Positions 10,877-62,646 of a DNA stretch of 64,000 nt are shown piece by piece. Source of the stretch: Yuukianura sp. NJ FZ-2021 (lineage: Eukaryota). The notes under the pieces were generated by a model that saw only the letters and a list, made by a program, of their open reading frames with translations, searched no databases and had not been told where the DNA came from. The stretch spans positions 5,208,001-5,272,000 of the forward strand of contig CM102287.1 of NCBI GenBank assembly GCA_046563655.1, given 5' to 3'. Both the position numbers and the translations under genes were made by a program. Each line of letters starts with the position of its first letter. Position 1 is the first letter of the stretch.

Positions 10877-11116
10877 CATTCAACTTTTTTAGTTGAAATC
10901 TCCAACAATTGTAATTTAAGATCACAATTCAATTTTAAAGAAAAAAAATGTTTTACTTTTTTGTTGAAAATTTCAAATAAAACCCAACAAGTGTTTTCTC
11001 CATGTCCAATTTTTTGTGCAATTAACTTTTGTAAGGGTAACAACAGGAGTCCTGTGTCACTTAACAATAGAGAAGCACAAAAAACTAAAATAACACACAA
11101 AAAATTTGGGTTAAGG

Positions 11117-11323
11117 GATCGTTGTCCTAAAAAACCGTGTTCCACCCTTTCCCCGTGTCCCTGTTTTTTCTAAAAACGTGTTTTTTAGACAGGGTGACAA
11201 AAAATAGGGGTGGGCCCTTACATAACTGGTTCGTTTCGCTTTTTAGAAGTGGTGGTTCATAGGCACTTAACCCCTTCCCCTCATAAAGACTAAAAAAGGG
11301 GTTTCAGTTTTTTAGAACAACTC
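11117..11323. mobile_element. Possible degenerate MITE
   Basis: Imperfect inverted ends GTTGTCCTAAAAAAC (~11121) and GTTTTTTAGAACAAC (~11307); TSD not clear. Confidence 0.25.
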
Positions 11324-28164: not shown

Positions 28165-28200
28165 ATTGAAATATTCAACTATATTCAATTTTGTTTTGTT

Positions 28201-33034: not shown

Positions 33035-33729
33035 ATGCAGTCTTTGGTTCGTCTAAAAAAGTCAAAATCAAATTCATTTCAGAAAAATTCAGACAAAAAT
33101 TCCAATTTTTTGAAATTACTTTTTAGGTGATTTTCGCCAGTTTGTTAGCCTGCGCCGTCGCGGCTCCCCAGCTTTACACGGCCGCTATTGCACCAGGATT
33201 GACGACTAGCCAGTTTCACGCTCAGGATGAACTGGGACAGTACAGCTACGGATATGCTGGTCAGTTCTGAAATAACAAAGAAAGTTTAAAAAAAGTTTAA
33301 AAATTTTAAAGATTTTTCAAAATTTTGAAATTCTGACCTGGAAAATTGATTGTGATTTCAGGAGGCCCATCAGCCAAGTCGGAAACCAGAACTGCTGACG
33401 GTATTACCCGTGGAAGCTATTCGTACGTCGATGCTTACGGAATTCTTCAAACTGCCAACTACGTGTCTGACCCAGTCAATGGTTTCCGGGTTGCCCGAAC
33501 TGACCTTCCAGTAGGTCCAGCACCAGTACATGCTGCTCCAGTTGTGGCTGCTGCTGGTCCAGTTCCAGTTCAGTATGCTGCTGCAGCTCCACTCCAATAT
33601 GCTGCTGCTGCTCCGTACTACGCCGGAGGTCTACCAATTCCAGTCGGAGATACACCGGAAGTAGCTGCTGCGAAGGCTGAACATTTCAGAGCCCATGCTG
33701 AAGCTCGTGCTCGCGTTGGTGCATTTTAA
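33035..33729 (+). CDS. Cuticular protein with Rebers-Riddiford chitin-binding domain, 170 aa
   Basis: Exons 33035-33046, 33127-33259, 33362-33729. Signal peptide, QFHAQDELGQYSYGY, GSYSYVDAYG...YVSDPVNGF, AAP repeats and PVGDTPEVAAAKAEHFRAH motif. Confidence 0.95.
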
Positions 33730-38712: not shown

Positions 38713-40566
38713 TAACAATTTTATTTATTACTTTCTAGAATCTATGAATTAATCAAGCTTAATGAAAAATTTGGAAAGTAACAATAATATTACTTCAAAC
38801 TTCAATGATTTTAAACTTTAAGGTAAAGTCCGTAATTGACTTGAAATTACGGAATTAATTATATACTTTTGAAAATATTTGAAAAAAAATATGATAACTA
38901 AGTTTTAAATCTTACTTTTTCCATCAAAATATTAAAAATTGGGAAACTTTTAATTCAATTTCGTTAAAATCATAGTAATTTGGTCTTTTGTTCAACTAAC
39001 ACTACAAAAGATTTCAATTCCAACGGAGCATGGCAACTTACTAATTGACTCATGTTCTGGATTCTGGAAAATGCCCATACTCAAAGTGCTAATTAAGTTG
39101 CGAGTTTTAATTACTAATTGAACACGGAACTGCGAACGGTTCGGTGAAGATCAATGCGACTCCACGTTTGCAAGCGTTTGCACATTTCTATTCACAGCTT
39201 TGTTCTCTTTCACTCCGTCGTTCTAGATACATTCTCTGGCTTTTCGGATGGAAAAATTGATCAACTGTTGTAGCAACTTTTAGGTGAAAGCTACTCCCGT
39301 GTCAGCATTCACTCCATGATTTTCATTTGCTTTCAATTAAAATGAACGTGAATAACGTGAAAGTCACTTTCAGGGAGAACAAATCTTTACATTCCGCAGC
39401 ATTATAAAGTAGTTTTGGCTCCATTATAACGCTAATATGTTTTCAAATTTAAACTAATTAATTACTGTGAAATTGTCTGAACAACACTTTTCGAAACTTC
39501 AAACAGTATTGCATGACATTGACAGAAACCTCCGCTGAGTCTGAGTCTACTGACTGATTGAATCTAAACAACATGTCTTTTTTGTCATTTTGTTTACAAA
39601 CGAAAGTAATCGTGTTAACATTACCGCGAAATGTTTAGATTAGTTTGCTCAGACCGGCAGGGGTTCAACCAGACCCTGCTTCGTTTCACAGATTAATTGA
39701 AACAGCCAAAGCAATTTCCTTTCCAAGCAAAACAATCCTTACTGCATGAAACAAAAAAGGACAAAAGTAAAACGATCAAAACAAACCGATCAACAGTTTG
39801 AGTAAAGGCAAACAACCATAATCAAGTACAAAATTCAAACCAAACTAATCTTCACCTAATTTTTAAAAATCACATTGAAGTCACTTTCATTACAGTTTTA
39901 ACATGTCTGAACTTTTTGTGCTTCTGTGTGAATATTACTTTTTAAAAATTGAAAAAAGTGAGTTTAAACTTTTAGGCAAAAACATTCGACTCGATTATAT
40001 TCGCTTGAATATGCCTGCCAGGGTAATAATTAGGTAATTACCTTATACTTTCTAAGTTTCTTCGACTTTATTCACCTTTTTGGTTTTGACCAAATTTGTG
40101 TTGACAGTTTTTGTTTGCAAAATCTGTCTCTCCATTATGCTAATTTTATGGGGAAAGGTCCAGTCCAGTGGAATCTTCAATTTGATCTTGAACCTGCTCC
40201 AACAAGTTATCTCAGCGTTAAGATTCAACCTTCCCCCACACTTTCTCCTCATTGCTCCTCCAGACTTTCTCCAGAAAGCACTTCCGCAGCTCCAGCATCA
40301 GGGAAAGCGTCCAATTTCACCGTGGAGACAATATTGCACTCATTACTCACACTTTACAATTACCTAATTTATAATGCAAATTAGATTATTTCAGAAGTGT
40401 TTACCCAAGGTCAAAGGTCATTTTCCCCAACGTTTGCGTGGGTACCCCGTGCTTAACGAAAATCAGCATCAACGAAATTGAAGCGTCATAGTATAATAAC
40501 TTTAGTCTGTGTAAGTTATGAAATTTGGTTGTTCAATTTGTTCATGTTAATTTCTGAAGTGCGAAG

Positions 40567-43500
40567 ATGACTACGGGTGACAGTGACATTGGTGTTCTGA
40601 AAGTGACACAAACTGATGATCCAGGAAGTGTCGTTCTAGACAATGACGCTGCCGACATGTACAGATACCCTGCATGGACCATTGTTATTCTAATTGTCAG
40701 TTACTTAATTGTCTTTCTCCTTGGAATTGTTGGAAATGCTTCTGTTGTTTACGTCATTTTGAAAAACCCACAAATTAGTAAAACTGCGACGAATTTGTAC
40801 GTGGCCAATCTGGCTGTAGCGGATTTCCTAGTGGTCACAGTTTGTCTTCTTCCAACGCTTATCTCCAACATATATGTTCGTAAGTCCACATTTACTAAAC
40901 ACTTATTTTCTAAACTACAATTGTGTCAACAATGTAATGAGTTTGCAAAAACATAATGTTACGGTGCGTTATTCCTCGGACGAATAACCGCACCTGAAAA
41001 CGCTCGAATCTCCTCCCAGAACCTGGAGACTCCTAAAGAAATGACCGCTGACCTCTTGACCTCGATCCGTTATTGAGTCAAATCTTTATTAGAACTTGTA
41101 AAAGAAGATTTTACAAGAGAGAAAACTTTGCTCACCCAGAGCTAAACATTGAATGAATCTTACATTCCAGATCTAGTCTGGAGCAAAACATTTTACAGTT
41201 AGACTGTGTGGGTGGAACTGCAATTCCATCCTCACACACAAATCACATACCTAACGGTAAACCACTAATTGAATTAGCCTAGATTCCTACAACTAGGGGA
41301 GAAAAACACAAAAACAAGTAAACAAGTTGTCCTTGAGGGGTCACAAATGTACATTTTACCAGAAATGTAGCTAAAACTACGTGCAAGAAAACCTCTACAT
41401 AACAGTACTCCGGCGGATTTCTTAGTCACGTCCACGTGACTGCTCAGTTGTTATTGTTGTTGTTGTGGACGGCCGCAACGACGTTCACACGGGGATTGGG
41501 AATGTAATTTGGATTCGGTGGGGCTCCGGGTGGGGGCAGAAGGCGAGGTGGTCTTTGGACCAAACAGTCCGCAGCTAAATGGCCTTGGGCCCTACAAGTG
41601 TAGCAGATACGACGACGTGCGTTTTGCTGATTTCCTCTTCCTTGTCCCTGTCCATTCCCACCACCACCACGGCGAACTCCTCGTCTTCCTCTACGAGCTG
41701 TACGAGCTCCTCGACCGTCATTGATGATGATGACGATCTGCCGTCCATTTCGGTATTCTTGCCATTGAGGCATTCCTCGTACTGGCGGCGGGCGAACTCG
41801 CATCAATGCCACTTGGCGCTGACCTCCAGCGTGACCTCGTCGATTTCTGACGACTGGAGCGACGATCGGAGCTTGAATCACGGGAGCTTGAATCACGGGA
41901 GCTTGAATCACGGGAGCTGGAATCACGGGAGCTTGAATCACGGGAGCTGGGGCTGCTACTGCAGGCACCACGGCAGCTTCGTCATCGTCACTATCGTCAG
42001 CAAGATTGATTTCAGCGATTCCCTCTGCTGGTTGCTCCGGCATCTCCACATCATCTTCACCCAGTAACTCCCTCTCTCGATCCATGTTTCCTGAAACATT
42101 ACACAAAGTTAGCAAAATTGCAAACACAAAGTTAAAACAATGATCTTAAACACAAAGTTTAACAAAACAAACTTTAAAATCGTTAAAAAAAAAAACACTA
42201 AGTTTAGAAAAAAATCAAATTTTTACAAAAACAAAGTTTAAAATCGTTTGAAAAATCAAAATGAAAACTAATTAATAAAAAAAACACTAAGTTTTAACAA
42301 AACTTTCCACATAGGAAATTTCTAATTATTAAAAATTCACAAAGAATTTACAAAAAGTCAAACTTACCAACCATGTTCCTTCACTCAGAAGAAGAACGGT
42401 ACCTTATTGGTTTCCGAATGGTTCGGGCTGACCTTCGCACTGGTACTGCAGTTTGCTGGACTTCCTTCTTCTTGGCCTTCTTCACCACAACTGACCGACT
42501 TGGCTGCTGGACATGGACCATTTTAGCAATGTCCCCTTCGTCAGTGGCAGAGTCCGAGTCCACGTTGACACTAAGTCTAACGGGACTTTTCATTGATTCT
42601 GAGGAATTAGCATTCCTCTTCCTTCCAGACTGACTTTGAATTGGAATTTCTAATTCCGATAGCGACGAGCTAGATGAACTAATCTTTCTAGTTCGCTTCT
42701 TTTTCTTAATTTTTGAAGAAACAAATTCTTCATCAGAACTCGAATTGAATTCACTACGAAAGTGAAACAAATCCCTAACATGCACAATAATCGGCTTCCT
42801 ATTACTACCAATCAATTTGATTTGGTAGTTTACTGCCGATGTTTTCTTAGTCACCACATAGGGACCTTTGGTTTGTGCAAGTAAACATTGGGACAAGCCT
42901 TTCTTACGTACTGGCACTGAGCGCAGTACCTTATCGCCAATGTTAAAACCAACATTTTCCTTGTTTCTGTCAAAACGAACTTTTGACCTCTCATGAACTC
43001 TCCTAGAGTTCAAGGCAGCACGGAAGCGAGCAGCTTCCAGATCTCTAGGGAACTCATCCCTACGATCATTTTCAGAGCAACTAGGCAAATCCATGTCAAA
43101 TGGGAGCCTAGCCTCTCGTCCATGCACTAAGTAAAATGGCGAAAACTCTGTAGTCTCTTGCCTACTCACATTATAGGCAAATGTTGCCGATGCTAAACAA
43201 TCATCCCAGTTGTCCTGACTAGGATTAGCATATTTGGCAATTATTTTCTTCAAGGTCTGATTACATCGCTCAGTCATTCCGTTAGACTGAGGATGAAAAG
43301 GAGACGTGAAGTTGACCTTGAACTTCAGCTCCTCTTTTGCCTGTTTCACTAAGTCGGCAATGAACTGACGACCTTGGTCACAAACAAATTCTTTAGGTAA
43401 CGAATGCCTAAGAATTATCTTATCTTTTATATTAGCTACGACGCACTCAGCGGTAGCGTGGGTGACTGCTACAGACTCAACGTAGCGGGAGAAGTGATCA

Positions 43501-46500
43501 ATAAATATGAGCGCATATTTATTCTCCCTGTCCTTGGACTTCACCATTGGGCCAATAAAGTCAATGCCCACTCTCTCAAATGGGGTCGTGACCTCGTCAA
43601 AGTCTTGCATAAGACCTTGCTCTCGACCTCTACGCACTCTATGTATCTGACAGACCTTACAGCCTAGAACAAATCTACGCACGTCACGATACATTCCCTT
43701 CCAGAAAAAGCGGGATTTCACAGAGCTCCACGTTCTCGTCACGCCAAAATGTCCACTTAGGTCACCTGCGTGTACTGTCTCGAGAACTCGCTTTCTCAGT
43801 CCTTTAGGCACTACTAGCCTCCAAGAGCGACCTTCAGGCTCTAAATTAGCGGAATACAAAATTCCGTCTTTTAATGTGTAATCCTCCATATGACTTATGG
43901 ACGGATTTTTCTTACTTGATCCAGAGGCGCACTCAGCTTGCTCAATGGACTCAATGACCTTCCTTATCCATGGGTCTTGACCTTGACTCTCTTTCCAGTC
44001 CACCCCGTCTAGCACCAAGCATTCTGAGGAATCCATTGCCTCTGGTGGATCTACTGGAAACCTTGACAAGGGGTCAACGTCATTCGCGACCTTTCCAGCC
44101 CTATGGACGATGGTCATGTCCTGTGCCTGCAACACAAAGGACCATCTCGCAAGACGACCATTGGGGTCCTTCACAGAGAAGAGCCACTTCAACGCACTAT
44201 GGTCTGTCACTACGGTAAAATGAGTACCGTACACATAGGGTCGGAACTTCTGTACAGCGTACACAACAGCCAAGCATTCCAACTCGCTAGAGGTGTACCT
44301 CTTTTCAATGTCCGTCATTGCTCTGCTAGCATAGGCAATGACCCGTGGTTGACCTTCCTGGATTTGCACTAAGCTTGCTCCAAGGCCAAATCCACTTCCA
44401 TCACAATGGATCTCAAATGGAATTCCCTCCATAGGAAATGCCAAAATTGGACTAGTCACTAAGGCTAGTTTCAACTTTTCAAAGGCTTCATTTTGCTCAG
44501 CTCCCCACACAAAGTCCTGATCTTTTCTTAAAAGAAAATTCAGTGGAGCAGCAATCTTTCCAAAACCTTTAATGAATCTTCGGTAGTACCCACACATGTT
44601 CACAAAAGAACGAATGTGTGTTGGAGTTTTAGGTACAGGAAATTTAGTCACCGCAGACACTTTATCCTGATCTACCTCGACTCCCTCACTGGAAATGACA
44701 TGTCCAAGATACAAAATCTTTGCCAATCCAAATTTACACTTAGAAATTTTCAATGTCAAGTTAGCGTCACGAAAACGACTTAACACTGTCCTGAGGCGCA
44801 ACTGATGTTCCTCAAATGTCTTTCCCCACACAATTACGTCATCCAAATACACTAAGGTGCTCTCCCACTTAAGGTTCGACAGCACAACGTCCATTAGGTA
44901 TTGGAAACTAGAAGGACTGTTACAGAGTCCCATGGGCAGACGTCTAAATTGGTACAGACCATCCGGCGTCACAAAGGCCGTTTTCTCTTGGTCTTTTTCA
45001 TCCACTTCGATTTGATAAAACCCAGATACCAAATCGAGTACAGTGAAGTACCTAGCGCCACCAAGGCGGTCTAGAGCGTCTTCCATTCTCGGTAACGGAT
45101 ACGCATTCTTCTTCGTAATTGCGTTGATCTTCCGGAAGTCAATGCACAACCTTGATGAGCCATCCTTCTTTGGGACTAGCACAACAGGCGCGGCCCACGG
45201 GGAAATTGATTCTTCCACAATTCCCGCATCGCACAAAGCTTGGACCTTTTCCTTGATCTTCCTGCGCTCAACAAATGATGCGCGGTAGGGGTGAGATCTA
45301 ATTGGAGGATGATCTCCCGTCTCTATCTTATGACGAAACAAATTCGTCTTCCCCACTTTTGATTCGTCAGTCACAAAGACATCAGAAAATTCTTTCACTA
45401 ATTTGAGGACTTCAGTCTTCTCACTTAGAGTAAGATCCTCCCCCAAATCAATTTTAAAGTCATCCTGACTTTGCTTAGGCTGGACCGTTCCCATAGTACC
45501 ATCATGATCACTTAGAAGCATGACGCTGGCTCCCTTTGCACAAGGCGAACCAAATACAATTGTACTATTTCTGGGAAGTCTCACCTTCCCTTTATTCAGA
45601 TTAGTAATCCAAATATCCGTCTTACCATCTCTAATCACAGCGTACACATAGGGCTGGATTACGTTATGTTCAAACTGTAAGTTTCTGTTCGGAGACAGGA
45701 TCACTGAACCAGAAACTATGTCAGGGCAATGAACTGTTACCCTGTGTGCTTCCCTCGGTGGAAGTACAACAGTTTGCAACAAACAAAAGTTCCACATAGG
45801 ACTAGGCTCCTCCTCTTTTTCTGACACATAGTCTAGAGGGTTACCTATAGGCTTGTCACTTAGACTTGACCTTGAACTTTGCTTCGGACTGTCTGACCTG
45901 AATGTCCAATCCGTTCCAAGCAAAATTCTTTCTCTAAAACCTGGCATAACATGGAAACCCCACAAAGTAAGTTTACCATCATATGTCACCATCAACTCCA
46001 CAAAGTTAGTCAATGTTGTTTGTCCTAATGCCGTTGTCACTAAGAGCGGCGGTACCGTGTACTCCTTGTGTACAGCCTCCTTCACCTCCAGCAAAAACTC
46101 TGGACTAACAACACTAATGTTAGACCCCTCATCCACCCTCACAGAATAGGCTTTGCTACAGATAACAAATTCTGTAGTAATCCGGGGCCCTATTCGTTTA
46201 TGGCGGAAGGTTGCTGGGAGTGAATGACCTTCAACACAAGTCATCTCATTAACATCCACAGAGGATGTTGACTTCACCTTGGCTTGACTTTCAAGCTTAG
46301 AGGTTGATACCAGGCACGAGGCTGGTAATGACCTCCCTTGACCTTGCTTAGAACACGTAGTTCTAATTAACCTAATTTGCTTATCTTTCTTCTCCACTGC
46401 ACTGTCAAGCACAAAGCAAGACACAGGAGAAGAATTTACTACACTGAGTTCTGTAAGAAACTGATTCTTACCAACTGCGGAGTTTTTCAGGTGACCCCGT

Positions 46501-49500
46501 TTCACCTTTCTCAATCGTTTTTTGACTTAACGATTTCCTCTGCCGTCTCAGCGGCAACGCCATAGACAGAAGACGACGGTTTCGGCTTCCTGTCTGGACA
46601 ATCCCTTATGAAATGATCATCCTTACGACAACCATAACACAACTTTTTAGCCGGCTTCTTAGCCGTGTCACTCGAATCACTAAGGTTCGATGACCTTGAG
46701 GAACTCGATTCCTCCTTTGGCTTACCCACGGAGGGATTTTTGCTGACCCACTTAGGTTTATCAGCCTTATCCGGCTTGTCCATTTTTCGCAACTTTTGCA
46801 AAAATTCAGTCGGATTTTTCGGTTCTGCGCAGTACATAATGTTGCGCAGCGTGTCGGGAAGCCCTTTGGTCAACTTTTCGACCTGCTTCTTGTCCGACAT
46901 GTTCGGATCCAGCATCACAAAGATGCTCAACTTTTTGCTGACGTACTCCCCAGCGGAGCTACAATCAACAAACTTAATGGCACTGGCAGCCTTTTTCGCT
47001 TCCTTACGAACCGACTCAGGTTCGTAAAACGATTTTAATTGTTGTTTCAACAATTCCCACTTCTGATCCTTATTAGCGTCACTGAGATCGCTAATATACT
47101 TGATCTGCGCAAATTTCCACCAATCCTGTGCTTCACCTTCCAGAAGCAAATGGAAATTTAGGAGCAATAACCTGGAGTCAACTTGCTTTGTCTCCAGCGC
47201 AGCATCACATCTCACACAGAAAAGGTCGACATTCGATTTCCCATCGAATTTAGGAATTGACCTAATGACACTCTTTACATCGCTGGACATGACAGTCGCA
47301 GCGTTAGTGCCTTTACTGGTACCAGTTGCCATCACAAAGTACAACTTCCCTTTTGGCACTCAAACGAAATCTTTAGACAATAACCTTACGTGAGTTCCAG
47401 AACGTATGCCCCCAATCACGAAGTTCGAAGACTAGTTCCGTTTGCTCGTCCACCAAATGTTACGGTGCGTTATTCCTCGGACGAATAACCGCACCAGAAA
47501 TCGCTCGAATCTCCTCCCAGAACCTGGAGACTCCTAAAGAAATGACCGCTGACCTCTTGACCTCGATCCGTTATTGAGTCAAATCTTTATTAGAACTTGT
47601 AAAAGAAGATTTTACAAGAGAGAAAACTTTGCTCACCCAGAGCTAAACATTGAATGAATCTTACATTCCAGATCTAGTCTGGAGCAAAACATTTTACAGT
47701 TAGACTGTGTGGGTGGAACTGCAATTCCATCCTCACACACAAATCACATACCTAACGGTAAACCACTAATTGAATTAGCCTAGATTCCTACAACTAGGGG
47801 AGAAAAACACAAAAACAAGTAAACAAGTTGTCCTTGAGGGGTCACAAATGTACATTTTACCAGAAATGTAGCTAAAACTACGTGCAAGAAAACCTCTACA
47901 TAACAATAAATTGAAATTTTTTGTCAATCAGAAAATTTTTGTCACAAATTGCTCACAAAAAAAATTTGACCTCCTTTTCTTTAGCAATTTGAGTGAATTT
48001 TGAGATGTTGTTTCTAAAATTGGACATTTTTTTTAGAATTTCGGTTTCTAGAAGTTTCAAATCTAGCATGCCTTAACTTTTCTATTTTAACCGCACATGC
48101 AATCAACATCAAAAGTTAAAGTTTACCAGATTGGTGAAGGGTTAATGGAAAAGTATTTTAAGGAAGAAACGTCAAGTTACGAAGTGTAAAAGTAGAACTG
48201 AATAAGCGACGCTTCGTTGAATAATTCGTAAGTAAACTGTCACAAACATTTCTTCACAGTACGAAAAGCTTCACACCAATTTTATACCATCATAACTTAA
48301 TACACAACACAACCTAAATTAAATTTCCTCAAATTCGGAATAAAAAGACAAATTTTTTGGCAAATTGAATTCTTTCCAAACGTAATAAACAATTTTTATG
48401 AGAATCTTGCCAATTGGTAAAGATGCAAATTCAAACAGGATGCATTACGTTCCTATCAGGAAGCAACAAAATCACACTTATTGTTAACCTAAACAAATTC
48501 TCCAAACCGACAAAATTTTTTCAGTCTAAAAAGTTAACATAATTTAATAATCTAACTTAATTTTTGAAAGCTTGGATCCTGGGATGGTTTCTATGCAAAA
48601 CTGTGCCATACGTCCAAGGCGTCTCTGTCTGTGCATCTGTATACTCACTTGTTGCCATTTCCATGGATCGGTAAGCTTTCTCAAAGCATAACCTAACTAC
48701 CGTAACCTAAGCAACCTAATTACTCTAACCTAAGCAGCCTAACCAGCCTAGGTAATCCTACCAGCTTAATGGTGTCCTAATGAACTTAAAACCTAATTTT
48801 GCCAACTCACTGGAACTGCATCATATTTCGACAAGAACAAATTTGATTAAACACTCCCAGCACGAAAACTAATTAAAGATGGTCTTCGTCCGTACATGTG
48901 CAGAATACAAAGTTAGTTCGAAAAGAGAAATCTCTGAAAAGTTAATTCAGGGTGAAATTAGTAGGCGGGATTCCTTTCTTTCTCAAAAAAAGATTCAATA
49001 GTTCACAAAACTCAATAACTTTTAGAATATTTTGAAAATTTCAGTTCACAACGCCAAGTTTCCAAATTAATTCCAGGAAATCTCTAGGCTACGTACTTTC
49101 ACTTTCTTTCACTTTTACAATTTGCTTGCCCTCACTTCAACGAGTACGTCTTTTTTACACTTGTCAAAACAAAATGAAAGAAAAACTGGTGTAGCGGTTA
49201 ACTTAAATTAAACTTTCATGTAAGATTTCAAAGGAAAATAGTCCGAAGGAATTCCAATTTCAAAAATGGTACACTCTGCACCACTTTCTTTTTAAAAGTG
49301 TGTTTTCGCTAGACTAGCCTTTTGAAAATTCTTGTAAAGCTGAGCTTAGTAGTAACACGCGCCGCAAAACCAACAACGTCACGTTTGGCTTTTGATGACT
49401 CCCACTAAATATCCAGGAGGCATAAAAACTTAAACGTAACATAGCAATGTTCTTATCGTTAACTTTCTGTGGGTTGGATTGAACAAGTTTTGAAATTGAA

Positions 49501-50859
49501 CCACTAATTTTCCAATTAGCTCTAAACGTGTATTTTCCAAAATTCTGTAGAAGTTTCGAATTTTTTTTGTAGTTGTCGTAGTCTAAAACGACAAAAGTTG
49601 TTGCGCATTCCAAGTAACTTCAAATTCTAAAGCTGAAGTGAAGACGTTGATTAAAACGGAAGCGTTCAGAGTATGTCTTTGATCAAACGATTCCGTGACT
49701 TGCGTAGCTCGTTGTTAGACACAAATGAAGATTGAAAGGCTTGTCCAGAAATTTAGAAAAGGAAGAAGTACCCAGTAAAGCACAAATTCAAAGAGTCCGT
49801 GATTCTAACCAATTGATTCAAGCATTTCTTCAAATCAAAGGTTAGGTTAAGGCACAACCTTACAGGAGCCTTTGAATTCTCAAGTGACTGAAATAGATTG
49901 AGATCTTGAGATGAAGTGAAACGCCTAAATCCCAAAATACACAGAACGTGCCTGACGTTAATTTTTGAAATTGCTTGTTCTCGTCTACCCCTCAGGCTAG
50001 AATGACACAACTAAGGCTGTAGGTCATAAGGTGAAATGCTGAAAACCTAACTTAAATCTTAACCACTATGGCAACCTAAACTTAATCCTGACGTATAACA
50101 TGTATAACGTAACTGACTAATGTTATTACATGTATTACTTTCACTTTTATCCGCAGATTTATAACAATTTGGTTTCCACTGCGCTGTCAAGCCGAGAAAA
50201 TTCACACGCAAATTGTGATCCTTGGAATATGGATTTTCGCCTGTCTTCTGATGCTTCCTTGGGCTTTCTTCTTCAACATCACCCGATCATATCCCGATCA
50301 TCCCCAGATCGAATTCTGTATTGAAATGTGGCCGTCCTACTTGAATCCAAACGTTTACTTCATCGTTGCCAACCTGTTCGTATGTTACCTCCTGCCACTG
50401 TCCCTCGTGTCCATGTGCTACTTCTTCATTTGGTTGCGTGTTTGGCGCAGATTTTCTCCATCTGACTCCGAGTCCTTTACGTCTGCACAAGTATCTCACA
50501 TGGAACTGGTTCATCAGCGAGCCAAAGTCAGCGTTCTCAAGATGATTCTGGTTGTGATCTTTGCGTTTATGATCTGTTGGCTTCCACTTTACGCAATTTT
50601 CATCAGGGTCAAACTAGGTGGACCATTGAGTGCATCGGAAGAGGAAGTTGTGGCCTTCGTTACACCGATTGCACAGTGGCTCGGATCGTGCAGTTCTTGC
50701 ATCAACCCAGTTTTGTATGGATTTCTTAATGCTAAATTTCGATGCGTGTTTTTGACAATGTTGAGACGTTTGCGGAGGCCACGACACCAACATTTTGTAA
50801 TTGACTATAAAAAACCAATTGTCATCAGACACTCTTCAGTCGTGAGAGCTTCACTGTAG
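40567..50859 (+). CDS. SIFamide receptor-like rhodopsin-family neuropeptide GPCR, ~371 aa
   Basis: Exons 40567-40879, 48571-48670, 50157-50859 join in frame. GN (TM1), NLAVAD (TM2), [53 protein letters not shown]. Confidence 0.88.
40957..41404 (-). repeat. 3' LTR
   Basis: Matches 47458-47905 except for two substitutions seen (40995, 41000); AATAAA on the minus strand at 41090-41085. Confidence 0.97.
41444..42374 (-). CDS. Retrotransposon ORF3: acidic / PVIQA-repeat / Arg-Gly-rich / CCHC-knuckle protein (not env)
   Basis: Main exon 42090-41444 after aatgtttcag|, ATG at 42085 (213 aa); optional micro-exon ATG GTT G|gtaagt at 42374-42368 joins in frame. Knuckle [14 protein letters not shown]; 15-bp tandem repeats at ~41868-41950. 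Confidence 0.75.
42381..46514 (-). CDS. pol: Pol polyprotein (protease, RT, RNase H, integrase)
   Basis: Uninterrupted 1377-aa frame: VDEGS and ILLGTDW (PR), RLCIDFR and YLDD (RT), [17 protein letters not shown] (RH), H-x6-H...C-x2-C, GIDFIGP, DQGRQF, SNGMTER, GPY (IN). Confidence 0.96.
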   Translation of the reverse strand: MRKVKRGHLKNSAVGKNQFLTELSVVNSSPVSCFVLDSAVEKKDKQIRLIRTTCSKQGQGRSLPASCLVSTSKLESQAKVKSTSSVDVNEMTCVEGHSLPATFRHKRIGPRITTEFVICSKAYSVRVDEGSNISVVSPEFLLEVKEAVHKEYTVPPLLVTTALGQTTLTNFVELMVTYDGKLTLWGFHVMPGFRERILLGTDWTFRSDSPKQSSRSSLSDKPIGNPLDYVSEKEEEPSPMWNFCLLQTVVLPPREAHRVTVHCPDIVSGSVILSPNRNLQFEHNVIQPYVYAVIRDGKTDIWITNLNKGKVRLPRNSTIVFGSPCAKGASVMLLSDHDGTMGTVQPKQSQDDFKIDLGEDLTLSEKTEVLKLVKEFSDVFVTDESKVGKTNLFRHKIETGDHPPIRSHPYRASFVERRKIKEKVQALCDAGIVEESISPWAAPVVLVPKKDGSSRLCIDFRKINAITKKNAYPLPRMEDALDRLGGARYFTVLDLVSGFYQIEVDEKDQEKTAFVTPDGLYQFRRLPMGLCNSPSSFQYLMDVVLSNLKWESTLVYLDDVIVWGKTFEEHQLRLRTVLSRFRDANLTLKISKCKFGLAKILYLGHVISSEGVEVDQDKVSAVTKFPVPKTPTHIRSFVNMCGYYRRFIKGFGKIAAPLNFLLRKDQDFVWGAEQNEAFEKLKLALVTSPILAFPMEGIPFEIHCDGSGFGLGASLVQIQEGQPRVIAYASRAMTDIEKRYTSSELECLAVVYAVQKFRPYVYGTHFTVVTDHSALKWLFSVKDPNGRLARWSFVLQAQDMTIVHRAGKVANDVDPLSRFPVDPPEAMDSSECLVLDGVDWKESQGQDPWIRKVIESIEQAECASGSSKKNPSISHMEDYTLKDGILYSANLEPEGRSWRLVVPKGLRKRVLETVHAGDLSGHFGVTRTWSSVKSRFFWKGMYRDVRRFVLGCKVCQIHRVRRGREQGLMQDFDEVTTPFERVGIDFIGPMVKSKDRENKYALIFIDHFSRYVESVAVTHATAECVVANIKDKIILRHSLPKEFVCDQGRQFIADLVKQAKEELKFKVNFTSPFHPQSNGMTERCNQTLKKIIAKYANPSQDNWDDCLASATFAYNVSRQETTEFSPFYLVHGREARLPFDMDLPSCSENDRRDEFPRDLEAARFRAALNSRRVHERSKVRFDRNKENVGFNIGDKVLRSVPVRKKGLSQCLLAQTKGPYVVTKKTSAVNYQIKLIGSNRKPIIVHVRDLFHFRSEFNSSSDEEFVSSKIKKKKRTRKISSSSSSLSELEIPIQSQSGRKRNANSSESMKSPVRLSVNVDSDSATDEGDIAKMVHVQQPSRSVVVKKAKKKEVQQTAVPVRRSARTIRKPIRYRSSSE
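46478..46523 (-). promoter_or_regulatory. -1 programmed ribosomal frameshift signal (gag-pol)
   Basis: Slippery A AAA AAC (46523-46517) just before the gag stop; -1 slip enters the pol frame; followed by AGGUGA-AA-CGGGG-UCACCU-GAAAAA-CUCCG. Confidence 0.8.
46511..47332 (-). CDS. gag: Gag (capsid + CCHC nucleocapsid), 273 aa from first ATG
   Basis: [21 protein letters not shown] capsid-like motifs; [14 protein letters not shown] knuckle. Confidence 0.93.
   Translation of the reverse strand: MATGTSKGTNAATVMSSDVKSVIRSIPKFDGKSNVDLFCVRCDAALETKQVDSRLLLLNFHLLLEGEAQDWWKFAQIKYISDLSDANKDQKWELLKQQLKSFYEPESVRKEAKKAASAIKFVDCSSAGEYVSKKLSIFVMLDPNMSDKKQVEKLTKGLPDTLRNIMYCAEPKNPTEFLQKLRKMDKPDKADKPKWVSKNPSVGKPKEESSSSRSSNLSDSSDTAKKPAKKLCYGCRKDDHFIRDCPDRKPKPSSSVYGVAAETAEEIVKSKND
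47458..47905 (-). repeat. 5' LTR
   Basis: Direct repeat of 40957-41404; followed on the minus strand by TT and the PBS. Confidence 0.97.
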
Positions 50860-53267: not shown

Positions 53268-54733
53268 TCGTAGCAAGTGAAATGCCCAAAACAATTTGGC
53301 CAAAAGTGAAATGGTCAGAGGTGAAATGGCCAGAAGTGAAATGGCCAAAAAGTGAAAAGATCAGAATTGAAATGGCCAAAAAGTGAAAAGGCCAAAATGT
53401 AAAAACGCCAGAATGAAATTGACCAAAAAGTAAAAAGGCCAAAAAGTGAACAGACCGAAAAGTGAAATGGCCAAAATAAGAAAAGATCAGAAAGAGAAAA
53501 GATCAGAATATGAAAAAAAAATTATTTTCAGTGGGTAACTCGGATTTTCTTCATTTTTTTAGAAATACCTATGAACCCCTGACTGTGAAAATATATTTGT
53601 TTTTGACCCGCTCTCAAAGGAATTTCGGATTTATAGAATATTTTGAAAATTACAATTTCCCCATAAGGGCACATGTAAATATTTTCTCAAAATAGGTGTT
53701 CGCTTATATTTGGTTAAGTTAGGTTACGTTTAATAAGTGCTTAGACAATGGCGTTATAGCAGTGTTGGCTTTTCCCCGGGGATTTGATGCTCTCCCCGGG
53801 AAATTGGGGTTATCCCCAAATCCCCGGGGATTTGGGGATTATTGGGGCTCTGGCGATGTTTTGTACAGCGCATGCGCAGCGTCTGCGCAAACCCAGAATT
53901 CAGTGTAGCTCCACCCAGAACATTCCCACACTCCATCCCGTTTTGTTCTTTGTTGTTATCCATCGTTATTAAACTTTTTAAATTGATTCCGGCATTGACT
54001 ATTTTATATGAAATATTATTTATAATAAATAATATAATTATTGTTATATTATTTATAGTATATTATAATACAATTATTATTACTTTATAACTACGTAGAA
54101 TATAAAAGGCAAAGTCTAACGATATTCATAATGTATGTAATATAATATGTACATATATTATTATATAATTGTAATATAATAAATATAATATATTTATACA
54201 TAATATATAATATAAAATATTCAATGCCGGACGTTTAGAATCCCATTATTTCCCTGTTATAATATTGAAAAACACAAAAAAAAGTCAGCCATTTTGGATA
54301 AAAAAAAACGAAATCCCCACACAGCCCCAAATCCCCACCTCCGAGGATGGGGAAAACCCCAATAATCCCCATCCCCGTTCCCAGTGGGGTGGGGGTGCTG
54401 CCAACACTGCGTTATAGCCATTAGGTTACGTTTGGTTAAGTTTCGAAAAATGGGATTTAAAAAAAAAAGAGTGATATTTCCCATTTTCAAAATTTTCAAA
54501 AAATCAAAATCCTCGAGAGCGGGCCAAAAAATATGTATTTTCATAGTCAGGGGGTCATATGTAAAAAAAAAAAATGAAGCAAATCCGAGTTATTCATTGA
54601 AAATAATTTTTTTCCCCAAATTCTGATCTTTTCACTTTCTGATCTTTTCTTATTTTGGCCATTTCACTTTTTGATCATTTCACTTTTTGGTCATTTCACT
54701 TTTTGCGACTTTTACATTTTCGTGTCCATTACG
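53268..54733. mobile_element. Foldback-type element with tandem 15-bp subrepeats and long inverted arms (middle layer)
   Basis: AAGTGAAATGGCCAA arrays at ~53276-53510 and inverted at ~54623-54720; arms continue inward (e.g. TTTTTGACCCGCTCTC vs GAGAGCGGGCCAAAAA). Exact ends uncertain. Confidence 0.65.
53760..54409. mobile_element. hAT-type MITE, copy 1 (inner layer)
   Basis: TIR CAGTGTTGGC / GCCAACACTG, perfect 8-bp TSD CGTTATAG, subterminal CCCCGGGG palindromes, AT-rich core. Confidence 0.9.
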
Positions 54734-55841
54734 AAAATAGATAATGTCGTTATGGATCTCTGAACTGAATTCTAACTTTCGATACTTTTTTACGTTCATT
54801 TCAAATGCAAAAATTGCTTGTTTACAAACTTTTTTGCTAAACAATTTCCGTAGCAACGATATACGCCCTTCTTCGTCTAAGCCCCTCAATTCTTGGAAAA
54901 ATTTGATTTGATTTTTTACTAAAAAAGCAGGTTAAATTAAGTTTGCTCAGTGAAAGTGAAAGCAACAAGTTGTTTTTCTTGCTAAAAAATTCAATGTACA
55001 AAAATGAAAATTTCTCCGAACATGAGCTTTCATCATTGATTTCTAAAGCTAAATTTTCATAACCTTAGAATGGCTTTTCCAGGGAATTCTGTTGCTGATT
55101 GGTACTTGGCAGGCTGTCAGTTAACATAACCTAATGAACTTCATACTTACATAACCAACTTAAGTGTACATAAATCACAGCATAACACTGAACATGAAAA
55201 TAACGGCAACGAGAAAACAATCATAACTGTCTGCTAATTAAATCTCTTAAGTAGTAATCCAAAATATAGTAAGTACATCACATGCAATGCTGAATTTGTC
55301 TGTTTATTTCATTAAATTTTGCTCTTCCCACGCAACGTTACTCCAGAAAATGCTGGAAGTAGTGCTGAGCAAACTTTCAAGGGCCTCGAGCACATTAGCT
55401 GTAGATTCTCAACATTTTGCTGCTGCTGGGTTGAGACCGGAATCTGATAGCTTCCTAAATTGAGCAATTAGTTGATGTATTGAAGCCAATATGTACGTCC
55501 GAAGGGAAGTTCCAACGAGGAAGAAAGTGAGCAGCAAAATGCCACTTCCGGATAGAATCACTACGAGGCTCACCAGGTTAAGGCACCACAGCACCACATT
55601 TCCAAAAAACAAGCACTTCATCAATGCCAGTCTGTTTAATCTACTCGCCTACACACAAAATAATCAAATTTAAATTAGAAAGATGTGATGAGTTCATGAG
55701 CGATTAGGTTAACCTAACATAGTTCCATAACCTAACTTGAGGCTAAAATTTAGCGCTTGAGTTAACATGTTGTGACAAGTGGTGCTTAGTTTAGATTGGC
55801 GCTTACCCGGAAGGTTTCTAGAAACAAGAATGAATCAGCTA

Positions 55842-57500
55842 CAGTGGCGGCCAAAATTATTGGGACACCCAGTGTAAAAATTTTTAAACAACGATAACTT
55901 TTTAACGAAGTGTCATAATTAATAATTCGATACGTCATTTTATTCAGAAAATAGTTCTTTCCAATCTCCCAAGTTTTTAGAACTTGAAGTCAAGCGGTTT
56001 ATTTTATAGAATTTTTTAAACGCAAAACGTCAAAATTTTCGCGGACAAAATTATTGGGACAGCTGGGGTTTTGGAACGAAATCAACAGTTATTGGCATTA
56101 GTCTTCCATCGGTAAGTCACCTAACTTAATTTTTAGTACTTACTAACACTTGTAGTTAATTGTTGATTAGTTTTTCAGAGGTGGTTGGCAATATCAAGGA
56201 AGTTACAGGACCGATACGCGACCTAATCATTCAAGGTTGGGTTGGTGACGAAAATGGTACAAAATCAGTTCGTCAGCTGTCCGAATTGTACCACGTACCC
56301 AAGTCAACAGTACATAGCATCATACAAAGGTACCTCAAGACCGGCCATGTCGAAAACAAAGTCGGAAGGGGCCGTAAACCAATTCTTACTGAGAGGGAAG
56401 TTCGCCTGATCACCAAGAAAGTGAAGCTGGACAATCGAGTAAGCGCCGTAGAACTGTCCAAAACACTCAAAAGTGACCTTGACACCGAAGTCAGCCCCCG
56501 TACTGTTCAAAGAGTACTTTGCAATCAGAATTTGAGAGCTTTCAAGCCGTTGCGAAAACCGTTTGTGTCAAAGAAGAATGCAGCCAAGAGATTGAAGTTT
56601 GCAAAAGAACACTTTATGAAGCCGGTATCGTTTTGGGAAAGAATTTTATTGTCGGACGAGTCAAAGTTCAACGTTTTGGGGTCAGATGGACGAAAATATG
56701 TCCGAAGAGGTATTGGTGAAGCCTTAAAACCAAAGAACCTCAATGTGACTGTGAAACACGGAGGAGGCAGTGTCATGGTTTGGGGCTGCATGGCTACAAA
56801 CGGGGCGGGAACCTTGGAATTTATTAACGGAATTATGGATAAATTCGGCTCACTTCGTGTCAAGGTCACTTTTGAGTGTTTTGGACAGTTCTACGGCGCT
56901 TACTCGATTGTCCAGCTTCACTTTCTTGGTGATCAGGCGAACTTCCTACTCAGTAAGAATTGGTTTACGGCCCCTTCCGACTTTGTTTTCGACATGGCCG
57001 GTCTTGAGGTACCTTTGTATGATGCTATGTACTGTTGACTTGGGTACGTGGTACAATTCGGACAGCTGACGAACTGATTTTGTACCATTTTCGTCACCAA
57101 CCCAACCTTGAATGATTAGGTCGCGTATCGGTCCTGTAACTTCCTTGATATTGCCAACCACCTCTGAAAAACTAATCAACAATTAACTACAAGTGTTAGT
57201 AAGTACTAAAAATTAAGTTAGGTGACTTACCGATGGAAGACTAATGCCAATAACTGTTGATTTCGTTCCAAAACCCCAGCTGTCCCAATAATTTTGTCCG
57301 CGAAAATTTTGACGTTTTGCGTTTAAAAAATTCCATAAAATAAACCGCTTGATTTCAAGTTCTAAAAACTTGGGAGATTGGAAAGAACTATTTTCTGAAT
57401 AAAATGACGTATCGAGTTATTAATTATGACACTTCGTTAAAAAGTTATCGTTGTTTAAAAATTTTTACACTGGGTGTCCCAATAATTTTGGCCGCCACTG
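55842..57500. mobile_element. Palindromic (foldback) Tc1-family element made of two left halves
   Basis: TA-CAGTGGCGGCC...GGCCGCCACTG-TA; arms 55842-56496 and 56847-57500 are near-perfect reverse complements; inner direct repeat CAAAATTATTGGGACA (IR/DR type). Confidence 0.95.
56181..57038 (+). pseudogene. Truncated Tc1-like transposase
   Basis: HTH domains, GRGRKP, SDESKF and HGGGSVMVWGC present; homology stops at ~56846 before the second catalytic Asp and the SPDLNPIE-type motif; frame runs on into the inverted arm; GTG at the expected start. Confidence 0.9.
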
Positions 57501-57883
57501 TAGAACTTGAAACGTATTAATTAGTAAGAGGCTCACAGCAAACCAAAACAAAATTTGATCTGTAAAACAAAATTTCAAAAAATGCGATTAGCCTCCTTTT
57601 GTTCTAAAAATAGCCTCAGGATGGACATCTTACACAAATGTTTCAAAGAGAAAAAGCTTTCCTTCGCTCGTTTAAACAAAAGAAAATACAAAAGAAATCA
57701 AAAGTTTTGGAATTGAATTTCACTGAAACGACACTTGTCTTTTTTGCTTCTGGCTTTCTTTTTCAGAATTTTTGAGAAAACGTCAATTTTTTTAACATCT
57801 CAGTGCGTCAGCATGTCTCACATTGACATGGAATCCCCATTGACAAAAGCTTTTTCTGCTTTCTCCTCGCGTTCACCTGGTGA

Positions 57884-58524
57884 GTTGCCGATCCCCGGGG
57901 ATTATATGCTTTCCCCGGGGAATTGGGGTTATCCCCAAATCCCCGGGGATTTGGGGAAAATCGGGGCTCTGGCGATGTTTTGTAAAGCGCATGCGCAGCG
58001 TCTGTGCAAACCCAAAATTCAGCGTAGCTCCACCCCCGAGCATTCCCACACTCCACCCTGTTTTGTTCTTTGTTGCTATCCATCGTTATTAAACTTTATA
58101 ATTTAAGTCCAATGTTGAATATTTTATATTCTATATTATTTTTAATATATTATAACATAGTTATTATGTTTTATTTTTAATATATTATAGTATAATTATT
58201 ATTATATTATAAACTACAGCATATAAAGATAAAACATAATGATATTCAGACTGTAGTATATCATGTACAGATATTATTATATAAATGTAATATAATAAAT
58301 ATAATGTATTTATAAATAATATATAATATGAAATATTCAATACCGGACTTTTATAATCACATTACTTCAATGTTATTGTATTGAAAAACAACAAAAAATG
58401 TCAGCCATTTTGGATAAAAAAAACTAAATCCCCATCACCCCCAAAATCCCCACTTCCGATGGTGGGGAAAACCCCAATAATCCCCATCCCCGTCCCCAGT
58501 GGGGTGGGGGTGCTGCCAACACTG
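57884..58524. mobile_element. hAT-type MITE, copy 2 (left junction slightly deleted)
   Basis: Colinear with 53760-54409; right end GCCAACACTG followed by GGTGAAAG; left side reads GGTGA-GTTGCC, consistent with loss of ~7 bp across the TSD/TIR junction. Confidence 0.85.
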
Positions 58525-61500
58525 GGTGAAAGCTGCTCTTTCAAATTCCTTGTTCCTGTCATTGCATGACACCAGTAACATGTAAGGCACACGCTATTAC
58601 AAAAATGTCAAAAAATCAACACTAAGAAAACGAAAAAAAATTGCGCAGCCCTACTGTTCCCAAAAGAGAAAGAACGAAAAAATTTGACCTTATTGAACTT
58701 TCACATCTTATATCAACAAAAGTTTGACATTTTCAGCTAAAAAATGCTTCTAGAGCATAAATTTTAGACAAAAATGGGTATTTTATATTTTTTTTTTTTT
58801 AAAAAAAAAGTAATTTTCATCAAAACCAAGGGATTTCTGGAACTTCTGAAACAACAAATGCTCAATTAAGCACAAGGGAAGAATATCTTCGTTCCCTCGA
58901 GGAGTACTTATAACAGAATGCCTAATCTGCAATGTTGCAAAACTTGTTAGTTCTTACTATAAAATTTGTTCATATAATTATAATATATTATTATAGATTC
59001 AAACTTGACAAAAGTCGACTCCCGCTTCCTCATCTCTTTCAACATTCTTCTCAAACTACGTTTTTTGAACCAATTTAATCACAAATCCGGAAGATGACAT
59101 GTGACATTTTGACTTTCGAACAGCAAAAAACGCTCAGCCCGAAACTTATATCTTCCCTAACAATTTCGAAAATCTGCTTTGAATATTTTTTTTTCTAATA
59201 AAAATCAAAATTGAACACAAACTTTTAAAATTTCCCGTTGCAAAGTTTCCTTATTAATGTTAATTCTAGTAATATATAATTTTCTATAGAAAATTAAATT
59301 TTACAATTTCGTTTATTCGTAAAGCACAAAACTCTTTTGAACCATCAATAGGCAAGTCACAAAATTTTGAAAAATTGAAGGAAAGTGTAGCCACCGGAAA
59401 AGCCGATTTCAAAATACTAGTACACGCGTTTTTTCTGATTTTCTAAAACCGTCAAGGGAGAAATTGAATTTTTTTAAAACTGTTTTCTATTTACTTAAGA
59501 GTGAATACCATTTTTTTTCATTGAAGGACTTGTTGGAAGCAGAAGAATCAAGGCAAAACTTAAGTCAGAGTTACTTTCTCGTAAGTGTATTTACCTCCTT
59601 GAAATCAAATTTGCATGAAAGGTTACTTTCTCTTAAGAAGACTTATTCTGTCATCAGTATGACAAGTTTATTTACCAAAAAAAACTTTACACACACAGTT
59701 CGTTTCAACATGACAAAACGTCTTAAGACGACTTAAGGAAGTACGGGATTTTAAAGCTCATTTAAAATTGGGACTTACAAACTTGTGACAAACTTCTGGA
59801 AGTTCAACTTTACATTCAAAGTAAACCTTTCAAAATCACATCTTGTTTTCAATTCATACTTGAATTGAATTCCTGCGCAAATGGTGCGAACAAAGGAAAG
59901 CTTTTAGTTTTTAAACAGAAATTTCGTGCGTGGAAGAAATTTCAAACGTCCAAGGCATTACGTCTGTGGGAGTTGTTTGTTTGCCTTGAAAACTTCAGTT
60001 TTCCATCAAAATGACAAAGTTTAACTGAAAACGGTTAGATATTTACCATTTCCGGTGTAATAAATCATGTAGCGATCGTAGATGTAGAAACTGCCTTCTA
60101 CTCCATCAGTACTTTCACCCCAGGGCATTGTTCTTAACAGGATAACCGTTCCCAATGAAATGAAAAACAACGACAGAATCTAAAAGGAAATAAAACAAGA
60201 GAAAGTTTATATAAACAGAAACTTGTTTCTTCAATGCTTAAATTTTCAACGCTCCATTTCCATCAGAAATTGGGTTTTGTAATATGCTTTTTAGAAAATT
60301 GAAAACGGTGTAAAATGAAAATCCGTTTCATTTCAACCAGGTTTCTGTCCAAAATGTCATAAAATTAGAAGCACATTTTGAACCAAAAGGAAAGCTTTCC
60401 ATAAATCTCATTCATTAAATTCCATTTTCTGAATTAACCTTTTGTTATTTTGTATTAAATTTGTGTGTTTTCTTACAAGTCCAAGGCATGCAGAATACCG
60501 CAGGCAGAATTTGAGTGAAAAGCCACAAGAGAATCCAAGAGTGTCACTTTGAGTGTCATGTTCCTGTTGTGGGTTTGTTGTTTTTGTGAACAAACTAGTT
60601 TCGACTTTTGACCAAAACTTTGTGTTCATTGTGTACTTACTTTAAGTCTTCATGACTAACAAGAAACTAAATTCTGAGCACCTTTCACTTGGACTTTCAC
60701 TTTGGAGTGAAACTAATTCTCTCTACAGAGTGCAATAGCCTTCAACACTAATCAAAATATGGATTTTGGTTTCAGGGTGTTTGGTTTAACTTAAAGCGCA
60801 TCTGGTGATAGACAGAAAACCAATTTTAATACAAAAGACTAATTTCCGGTGGCTCTTCCTTCTGTCCATCCAGCCCACCGGTTCCCACGAAACAGGAACC
60901 AAGGACATCCGTTTTTCTTGGACGTTGTAAACGGAATTTAAAGCACAATCGCTAATAACCGTGAAAAATTTGAAAAAAAAAACGATCATTCGTTCAAGAA
61001 ATTAAAAACTTAAGGTTTTAAAAATTATAAATAAATAGAATTTTATATTTCAATTTTTTTTTGACACTTATGGCGAGAGTTAAGTGTACGGATTGCCAAA
61101 GCGGATGGGTAGAGTTATTATGGTTCTTTATATTATATTTTGTTCATATTTACTATATTACTGCATTCTACACATTATGTTATGTTAAAAGAAAAACTCA
61201 TATGCGTACTTTAGCGTCGTAGTACCGCTTAAGATTCTTCGGCAAAAAAAATGAATTTGATGGAAAGCTTCCGATTTATTCTTAACTTTTTGCGTTGTAT
61301 TTGATATTTTTGGAAAAAGTCCTTTTGAAGGAAAGTATGGATAATGAATAGGGAGAGTGGAATTAGTAAGGCTACGGAAAGTGAAGGTTGAGTTGACTTT
61401 CACCTAGTCAGCACCAAAAATGTCTTTCATCTCCAGCGCTTCATTACTTTCGCCTTATTAGCCTTTTGGTTTTGAATTTAATTTAATTGGTAGCAGAGTA

Positions 61501-61974: not shown

Positions 61975-62646
61975 TTACGTTTCTCTTGGAATAGAATTGA
62001 ATGTGATAAGCAGCATTCCTAGCAGCATTCCAGCTAGATTGCCGAGGGGAAAGTGTTCCGAAGAAACTACAGGGGCTTTAGCTACACCATCAGAGCCACC
62101 ACCAGATCCTCCAGCAGAGCCATCAGATCCATCCTTTCCTCCAGGAGAGCCACCAGATCCTCCTTTGCCTCCAACAGAGCCACCAGATCCACCTTTGCCT
62201 CCAGCAGAGCCACCAGATCCACCTTTTCCTCCAGCAGAGCCACCAGATCCACCTTTTCCTCCAGCAGAGCCACCAGATCCACCTTTTCCTCCAGCAGAGC
62301 CACCAGATCCACCTTTTCCTCCAGCAGAGCCACCAGATCCACCTTTTCCTCCAGCAGAGCCACCAGATCCACCTTTGCCTCCAGCAGAGCCACCATCTCC
62401 ACCTTTGCCTCCAGCAGAGCCACCAGATCCACCTTTTCCTCCTGCAGAGCCACCAGATCCACCTTTTCCTCCGGCAGAGCCACCAGATCCACCTTTTCCT
62501 CCGGCAGAGCCACCAGATCCACCTTTTCCTCCGGCAGAGCCACCAGATCCACCTCCACCTCCGCCATCTGCTGTTTGTGTGGCAGTACAAACGATGCTGC
62601 TCAAAAGGATCAACACAGCAGCATCGTACAAGCTCCTGTTCGCCAT
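61975..62646 (-). CDS. Secreted, probably GPI-anchored glycine-rich repeat protein, 223 aa
   Basis: N-terminal hydrophobic signal (AAVLILLSSIVCTA), 14 GGSGGSAGGK-type units plus one degenerate unit, C-terminal hydrophobic LAGMLLGMLLITF; upstream acceptor tttttactgtcacag|. Confidence 0.8.
   Translation of the reverse strand: MANRSLYDAAVLILLSSIVCTATQTADGGGGGGSGGSAGGKGGSGGSAGGKGGSGGSAGGKGGSGGSAGGKGGSGGSAGGKGGDGGSAGGKGGSGGSAGGKGGSGGSAGGKGGSGGSAGGKGGSGGSAGGKGGSGGSAGGKGGSGGSAGGKGGSGGSVGGKGGSGGSPGGKDGSDGSAGGSGGGSDGVAKAPVVSSEHFPLGNLAGMLLGMLLITFNSIPRET
62104..62553. repeat. 30-bp coding tandem repeat (~15 units)
   Basis: Unit ccagcagagccaccagatccaccttttcct; variation mostly synonymous in the Gly-rich frame. 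Confidence 0.95.

Follow-up and report, generated by a model that had tools for sequence, protein, structure and literature searches.

What is the element at positions 55842 to 57500 of the window, by which we mean the whole 64-kb stretch of DNA that was analyzed: a natural hairpin silencer of its own transposon family, as a preliminary description had proposed, or one copy of a defective form that transposition has spread? We assign a probability of roughly 0.78 to the reading that it is a non-autonomous foldback derivative of a Tc1 element of the IR/DR group, which arose by gap repair with a template switch and then moved by means of its two left ends. It is composed of the following parts.

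55842 to 57500, plus strand: whole foldback Tc1 element, 1,659 bp, Tc1-type (IR/DR)
55842 to 56496, plus strand: left arm, with terminus, IR/DR, leader, and first 105 codons
56497 to 56846, plus strand: 350-bp spacer (hairpin loop), i.e. transposase codons 106-222
56846 to 56847, no strand: rearrangement junction, bridged by contigs X2 rec15, X3 rec22, and X4 rec29
56847 to 57500, minus strand: right arm, an inverted copy of the left arm in place of the normal right part
55842 to 56061, plus strand: left 220-bp stretch, the normal terminal inverted repeat, with outer DR 55847-55867 and inner DR 56041-56061
57281 to 57500, minus strand: mirror 220-bp terminal repeat, with inner DR 57281-57301 and outer DR 57475-57495
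55840 to 55841, no strand: left TA of the target-site duplication; the empty-site contig retains one TA
57501 to 57502, no strand: right TA of the target-site duplication

Repeat finding located inverted arms at 55839-56485 and 56857-57503 (647 nt, 99% complementary, 371 nt apart), and an ungapped comparison counted 5 mismatches in the 647 positions. Gapped blastn aligned 55842-56496 with 57500-56847 (655 bp, 98.93% identity) and introduced one 1-nt indel. The arms differed from each other at 7 positions, and their least faithful part was the 11 bp adjoining the junction, with one indel and one mismatch. Within the 64-kb window, the 26-nt terminus had two occurrences, which are the two ends of the element; 0 of 100 shuffles contained a match. 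The 21-nt direct repeats, two per arm (55847 and 56041, mirrored at 57281 and 57475), were 95% alike. No second copy of the foldback element was detected elsewhere in the 64-kb window by blastn, and contigs of another family form matched the window only from 57281 outwards. Judged by the frame that runs into it, the spacer is not foreign DNA; it is the transposase gene continued, with the inverted left end replacing the sequence beyond. The anatomy given in the preliminary description was thereby reproduced: the right half is an inverted copy of the left ~650 bp with few mismatches, the 350-bp spacer and the junction at 56846/56847 coincided exactly with the gapped alignment, the arms include the first ~105 transposase codons (105 per arm when counted from the start-codon position at 56181), and both ends are intact, each with the 26-nt terminus and a flanking TA.

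The IR/DR group is defined, in the available part of PMC5224488, by terminal repeats of ~200-250 bp with two direct repeats, the binding sites, in each. The features of this group were present in the element, namely the TA duplication, ~220-bp repeats with two DRs, and a paired-like HTH, and so were those of a foldback or long-TIR non-autonomous derivative, in that both ends stem from the same parent end and the transposase is incomplete. Those of a MITE were lacking: the element measures 1,659 bp and has a 222-codon frame, as opposed to a few hundred bp of non-coding sequence. Its coding part comprises two features.

56181 to 56846, plus strand: truncated transposase frame of 222 codons, from Pfam and alignment to 346-aa relatives
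56112 to 56178, plus strand: putative intron-like stretch in the leader (GTAAGT...TTTTTCAG), ending 2 nt before the start-codon position, as read from the sequence

The frame 56178-56846 matched the Pfam family HTH_Tnp_Tc3_2 (PF01498) with an E value of 1.5e-17, above the family cut-off; the match to HTH_SB (7.4e-5) was below its cut-off, and other HTH families were weaker too. Among 5.8 billion proteins, the nearest relatives were 346-aa proteins with 52-54% identity, some of which are named Tcb1 transposase and come from the springtail Folsomia candida. With the read-through frame as the query, no relative exceeded 54% identity. The frame aligned with residues 1 to ~222-225 of the 346-aa relatives and then departed from the family. 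In this alignment, the first catalytic D (SDESKF) was kept, and the DNDPKH and PDLNPIE blocks were missing because of that departure; a complete DDE/D catalytic domain is absent, only the first of the three catalytic residues being there. By its coding content, the element is a non-autonomous derivative and not an autonomous member of Tc1.

A truncated transposase may nevertheless act as a protein. The P element is repressed by the truncated KP protein, and foldback copies with an ATG would encode 222 transposase residues plus a 63-residue tail that might compete for the binding repeats. The open frame 56160-57038 indeed crosses the junction, and the HTH domains are intact. The contigs covering 56181 and its mirror letter 57161 carry A and T, respectively, giving the ATG that most family contigs have. 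The copy in the window, however, has GTG at this position in both arms, so that a protein repressor would be possible for the ATG copies and not for this one, and the 63-residue tail is antisense-derived filler. We regard repression at the protein level as improbable.

Five sequencing runs contain the stretch, none of them recorded as RNA, and the kind of all five being guessed only ("DNA?"). Four runs were compared with the window; X1, X2, and X4 represent one sample, and X3 comes from another study and bears another organism label. The junction was bridged in contigs of three runs from two studies.

56456 to 56886: contig X3 rec22, depth 130.2, crosses the junction
56766 to 56886: contig X2 rec15, depth 155.6, crosses the junction
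56810 to 56896: contig X4 rec29, depth 6.9, crosses the junction

Four X3 contigs of the left flank had depths of 2.5-3.7 as compared with 130.2 at the junction, i.e. roughly 40 times single copy, contig depth being a proxy only for copy number. This ~40-fold depth implies that the foldback is a multi-copy form and not a one-off. The X3 junction contig started and stopped 30 nt within the perfectly repeated parts of the arms, the edges that a k=31 graph yields for an inverted-repeat loop. In X2, the path forked at 56846, with a depth of 155.6 through the junction and 53.9 into another contig. This alternative contig of 566 nt (81 + ~446 + 39) left at 56846, rejoined the window at the inner edge of the inner repeat (57281), and would fit a normal element of ~1.67 kb with some 120 further codons. 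The junction form made up 74% of the depth at the X2 fork and was the sole path in X3 among the contigs listed. Among those listed for X1, X3, and X4, none exited at 56846, contigs being prone to lose rare variants. At the termini, six loose ends ran into other flanks, and no contig tied the junction to a named other site; from depth and flanks, we infer that the same junction probably lies at different TA sites. A 33-nt junction pattern had 0 exact matches in metagenome contigs, and the 26-nt terminus had 0 in each of three contig collections (metagenomes, viruses, and prokaryote genomes). We conclude that the junction truly exists and that the foldback recurs within the family, of whose copies it probably makes up the majority.

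At 56807, every covering contig of all four runs reads T and the window reads G. This change is synonymous in the transposase frame, and it is either private to this copy or an assembly error. Because of the T at 56807, the junction contigs derive from other copies of the family and not demonstrably from this one. Both arms differed from the majority contigs at four mirror pairs (56022/57320, 56038/57304, 56181/57161, and 56205/57137); differences confined to one arm numbered three, two in the left arm (55926 and 56008) and one in the right (57353). For the symmetric changes in what is a minority copy, arm-to-arm gene conversion and a separate foldback lineage are the candidates.

The four shared mirror differences indicate that the arms are copies of each other and not the ends of two elements. 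Nested and adjacent insertions are frequent in the window and would lend themselves to a history in which two elements came to lie head to head, or one inside the other, before a deletion joined them. Such a history would nonetheless need two events plus a deletion that left the outer ends exact, the four variants common to the arms are absent from the majority contigs, and the single junction is multi-copy. We consider an origin of this kind highly improbable.

Some long-read library preparations are known to generate artificial palindromes, and mis-joined repeat reads could have produced a false one here. No single record covers the entire structure; among the reads and contigs of the four runs, none spanned flank, arm, loop, arm, and flank. 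For the complete structure at this locus, we therefore depend on the assembly. Against an artefact stand the high depth of the junction in three runs of two studies and the position of both ends, which border on two halves of a single exon that fit together and on a duplicated TA. Moreover, the arms differ at 7 positions, yet deviate alike from the majority contigs at the four mirror sites. An artefact is, in our judgment, barely credible. The preliminary description had named an assembly artefact, with no reads across the foldback, as a refutation of its reading; as far as the junction is concerned, the bridging contigs of three runs from two studies speak against this.

The element was further said to reside in exon 3 of a host gene, and this was borne out by a four-exon model on the minus strand.

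60477 to 60629, minus strand: host exon 1, 153 nt, with the ATG at 60629
60047 to 60179, minus strand: host exon 2, 133 nt; splice phases fit, homology weak
55807 to 57559, minus strand: host exon 3, 92 nt without the element and one TA (57559-57503 joined to 55841-55807)
55409 to 55648, minus strand: host exon 4 and stop codon, 240 nt

The model comprises 618 nt, i.e. 205 codons and a stop, without an internal stop, with GT-AG borders at all three introns and with fitting phases. By blastp, it matched P0121 over 173 residues (33% identity, E value 4.2e-24) and P0125 over 169 residues (31% identity, E value 5.1e-16). The 79-aa minus-strand open reading frame 55648-55412 had four matches with E values of at most 0.001 in a HMMER search of 1.84 billion proteins. 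The best of them was P0121 (1.4e-7), 191 aa long and unnamed, from the springtail Allacma fusca; P0124 clusters with P0125, an uncharacterized 365-aa protein of Folsomia candida. One of the four matches, P0122, is an ankyrin-repeat protein and was set aside as due to chance.

The first three exons were also compared individually with shuffled sequences. Exon 1 scored 47 against P0121 (0 of 3000 shuffles as good) and 48 against P0125 (2 of 3000), and exon 3 scored 42 (0 of 2000) and 50 (1 of 5000), respectively. Exon 2 was weak by homology alone, with 33 against P0121 (76 of 3000) and a non-significant 27 against P0125 (739 of 3000). The exon 3 peptide ranked first among 390 30-mers from local six-frame translations, with a score of 55 followed by 43 for the next; against P0123 it was not significant (458 of 2000 shuffles as good). 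A simple frame test of the empty site gave 46 aa as the longest frame across it, Pfam returned nothing for four flank open reading frames, P0121 has no Pfam family, and a search with P0121 returned only itself. A reading without any exon, based on the 46-aa frame and the Pfam result, was overturned by the HMMER search and the splice model.

The host gene is predicted to encode a small four-helix membrane protein like uncharacterized membrane proteins of springtails. The element interrupts exon 3 between ...TFQV and LADS..., within a predicted membrane helix, and the frame with the element retained stops after residue 126.

Other repeats and genes were seen around the host gene. Two copies of another repeat (57892-58533 and 53773-54418, 85% alike), one of them in intron 2 of the host gene, reached X1 depths of up to 8,484-22,843, and their contigs extended upstream with a CAGTGTTGGCA-type end; they seem to represent a short element of very high copy number, which may likewise be of Tc1/mariner type. 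An LTR retrotransposon at 40955-47908 has 453-bp LTRs that are 99.3% identical (40955-41407 and 47456-47908) and long gag- and pol-like open reading frames on the minus strand (46511-47359 and 42381-46526). It separates the plus-strand open reading frames 40558-40956 and 50113-50859, the front and back of an apparent seven-helix receptor gene, and seems to be a further case of a young insertion in a gene. At 62087-62562, tandem 60-bp units, 87-91% alike, lie in an open frame that encodes PPAEPPDPPF repeats. Several direct repeats of up to 500 bp, 79-90% alike, occupy 27647-29335 (e.g. 28825-29335 versus 27647-28165). The open reading frame 33337-33729 has a tail rich in alanine, proline, and valine and contains a motif that we take to be the chitin-binding consensus of arthropod cuticle proteins.

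A contig of X1 linked 55839 directly to 57501 with a 2-nt overlap (TA), which is the exact empty site. Its depth was 96.1, compared with 93.9-94.6 for the alternative haplotype of the flanks, which several nearby differences distinguish; its shorter side of 28 nt is under the 31-nt rule, which makes it good but not firm evidence. From this contig, the insertion is probably polymorphic or heterozygous, present in one haplotype and absent from the other, and young. The suggestion made at the outset that two left ends may leave the element mobile is supported by the multi-copy junction together with the empty-site contig. The flanks contain a second haplotype with dense differences at 55500-55680 and 57580-57810. 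It has a 3-bp deletion at 55618 in host exon 4 that keeps the frame, and six of the ten substitutions listed for exon 4 (55527-55641) fall on third codon positions.

For the origin of the foldback, abortive gap repair with a template switch is the most likely, because most economical, explanation. A break made by transposase would have been followed by repair synthesis on a normal element, beginning at the left end and proceeding as far as codon 222. There it would have changed templates, continuing on the complementary strand from codon 105 back outward to the left terminus. A second, inverted left end would thereby have taken the place of the right 0.67 kb, which had contained the normal right end and two catalytic residues out of three. 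Because both ends keep two transposase-binding repeats and a cleavage site, cut-and-paste transposition is possible, and a foldback with four binding repeats and both cleavage sites could have been moved by transposase from intact relatives, presumably normal copies like that indicated by the alternative X2 contig. The foldback would have multiplied in this way until one copy recently hit the TA in exon 3 and truncated the product after residue 126, the same TA on the other allele still being empty. A transcript starting from the host promoter or from the leader of the element would form a long hairpin that is nearly perfect. The structure, the multi-copy junction, the location in the exon, and the truncation are observed; the template-switch origin, the mobilization in trans, and the hairpin RNA are what we infer.

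There is precedent for such an origin. In Goblin, which derives from the Tc1/mariner element Ozma of Aedes aegypti, both subterminal regions come from one end, and template switching has been proposed in the available text of PMC3814204. The same text holds that many long-TIR and hairpin-like elements require an explanation of the template-switch type.

Could the element also be a natural hairpin silencer, analogous to Mu killer? Transcripts from the promoter of the host gene or from the convergent promoters of the element would then yield long transposase dsRNA, and siRNAs made from it would repress the family, the source itself being mobile and spreading. Arthropods possess a route from hairpin RNA to siRNA, and Okamura et al. 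reportedly found in 2008 that long inverted-repeat transcripts of Drosophila hpRNA genes are diced to trans-acting endogenous siRNAs. As modeled, the idea is structurally sound. The predicted fold of 56062-57500, which corresponds to a transcript that begins only behind the inner repeat, has a stem of ~435 bp at -968.9 kcal/mol, and since the element lies within an exon, host transcription (minus strand) would cross both arms. A transposon end is inverted and duplicated together with 5' transposase sequence, which is the design of Mu killer, an inverted terminal repeat plus 5' transposase within a flanking transcription unit, as given in the available part of PMC3440606. For Ac/Ds, the accessible portion of a preprint (bioRxiv 10.1101/2020.01.07.897926) states that inverted duplications from alternative transposition start siRNA silencing. 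The excess of the junction form over the normal form (74% of the X2 depth, and the sole X3 path listed) would be consistent with a shut-down of the family, but defective copies are often abundant in families of DNA transposons without any silencer. Moreover, piRNAs are the chief means of transposon control in animal germlines. According to the available part of PMC12076837, transposon expression in Aedes is affected only to a limited degree by the siRNA pathway. We hold a silencing function of this kind to be unlikely.

Far from being a unique killer locus, the site holds one of the insertions of a foldback form that is repeated. A role in silencing, if there is one, would hence be a property of the family, and the foldback structure can exist without a flanking promoter. 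By analogy, one may think of a mobile Mu killer: the foldback would spread via the transposase of the family, and those copies that come to lie in transcribed places, such as the exon here, would make RNAi hairpins against intact elements. We regard this extension as doubtful. If it were true, it would amount to built-in negative feedback, the transposon family itself generating and scattering the silencer that acts on it, and it would explain why the junction form exceeds the normal form in the reads.

The reading that we prefer, a non-autonomous foldback formed by template switching and moved in trans, has value irrespective of silencing. Even without it, the element would be a clean, dated example of a template-switch origin and the later spread of a foldback, and the insertion would be a natural knockout allele of an uncharacterized membrane-protein gene. 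Its presence or absence at an exonic site provides a natural contrast between carriers and non-carriers for small RNAs, family expression, and excision. To our knowledge, the first recognition and shut-down of a newly active DNA transposon is poorly documented in animals. Clear examples exist in Mu killer and rearranged Ac/Ds, both of them immobile plant loci, whereas here a foldback with a perfect transposase-leader duplex potential of ~430 bp is multi-copy in an arthropod, which its closest protein relatives suggest is probably a springtail.

Among known systems, the Drosophila hpRNA genes also consist of long inverted repeats, but they are fixed host genes aimed at host genes; the element described here is mobile and would target its own family. 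Tc7/CeleTc1 is a foldback with Tc1-type termini and TA targets that depends on Tc1 transposase, and its arms are not derived from transposase. The element described here shares such termini and targets and differs in that its arms carry transposase sequence. The available part of PMC3814204 places Tc7/CeleTc1 of C. elegans among the long-TIR or foldback relatives of Tc1. In the same source, Goblin resembles the present element as a non-autonomous, multi-copy member of Tc1/mariner with subterminal regions from one end, but is miniature, of right-subterminal origin, and non-coding. The present element, by contrast, measures 1.66 kb, stems from the left end, and holds 105 transposase codons in each arm and a further 117 in the loop. 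Elements of the Sleeping Beauty type, as described in the accessible sections of PMC5224488, likewise have repeats of ~220-230 bp, two binding repeats per end, a TA target, and a paired-like domain; unlike the present element, they encode a complete transposase, and their left end differs from their right end. Among the substrates used in that work was a construct with identical left IRs. Mu killer (Muk) of maize, according to the available part of PMC3440606, similarly combines an inverted terminal repeat and 5' transposase with possible read-through from a flanking gene into a long hairpin. It differs in that it belongs to Mutator, is a single immobile plant locus, and has proven siRNAs and heritable silencing, whereas the present element is multi-copy and probably mobile. 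For a foldback derivative of Tc1/mariner, arms that carry transposase coding sequence and a form that is repeated are uncommon; the multi-copy junction and the probable empty-site allele go beyond the preliminary description.
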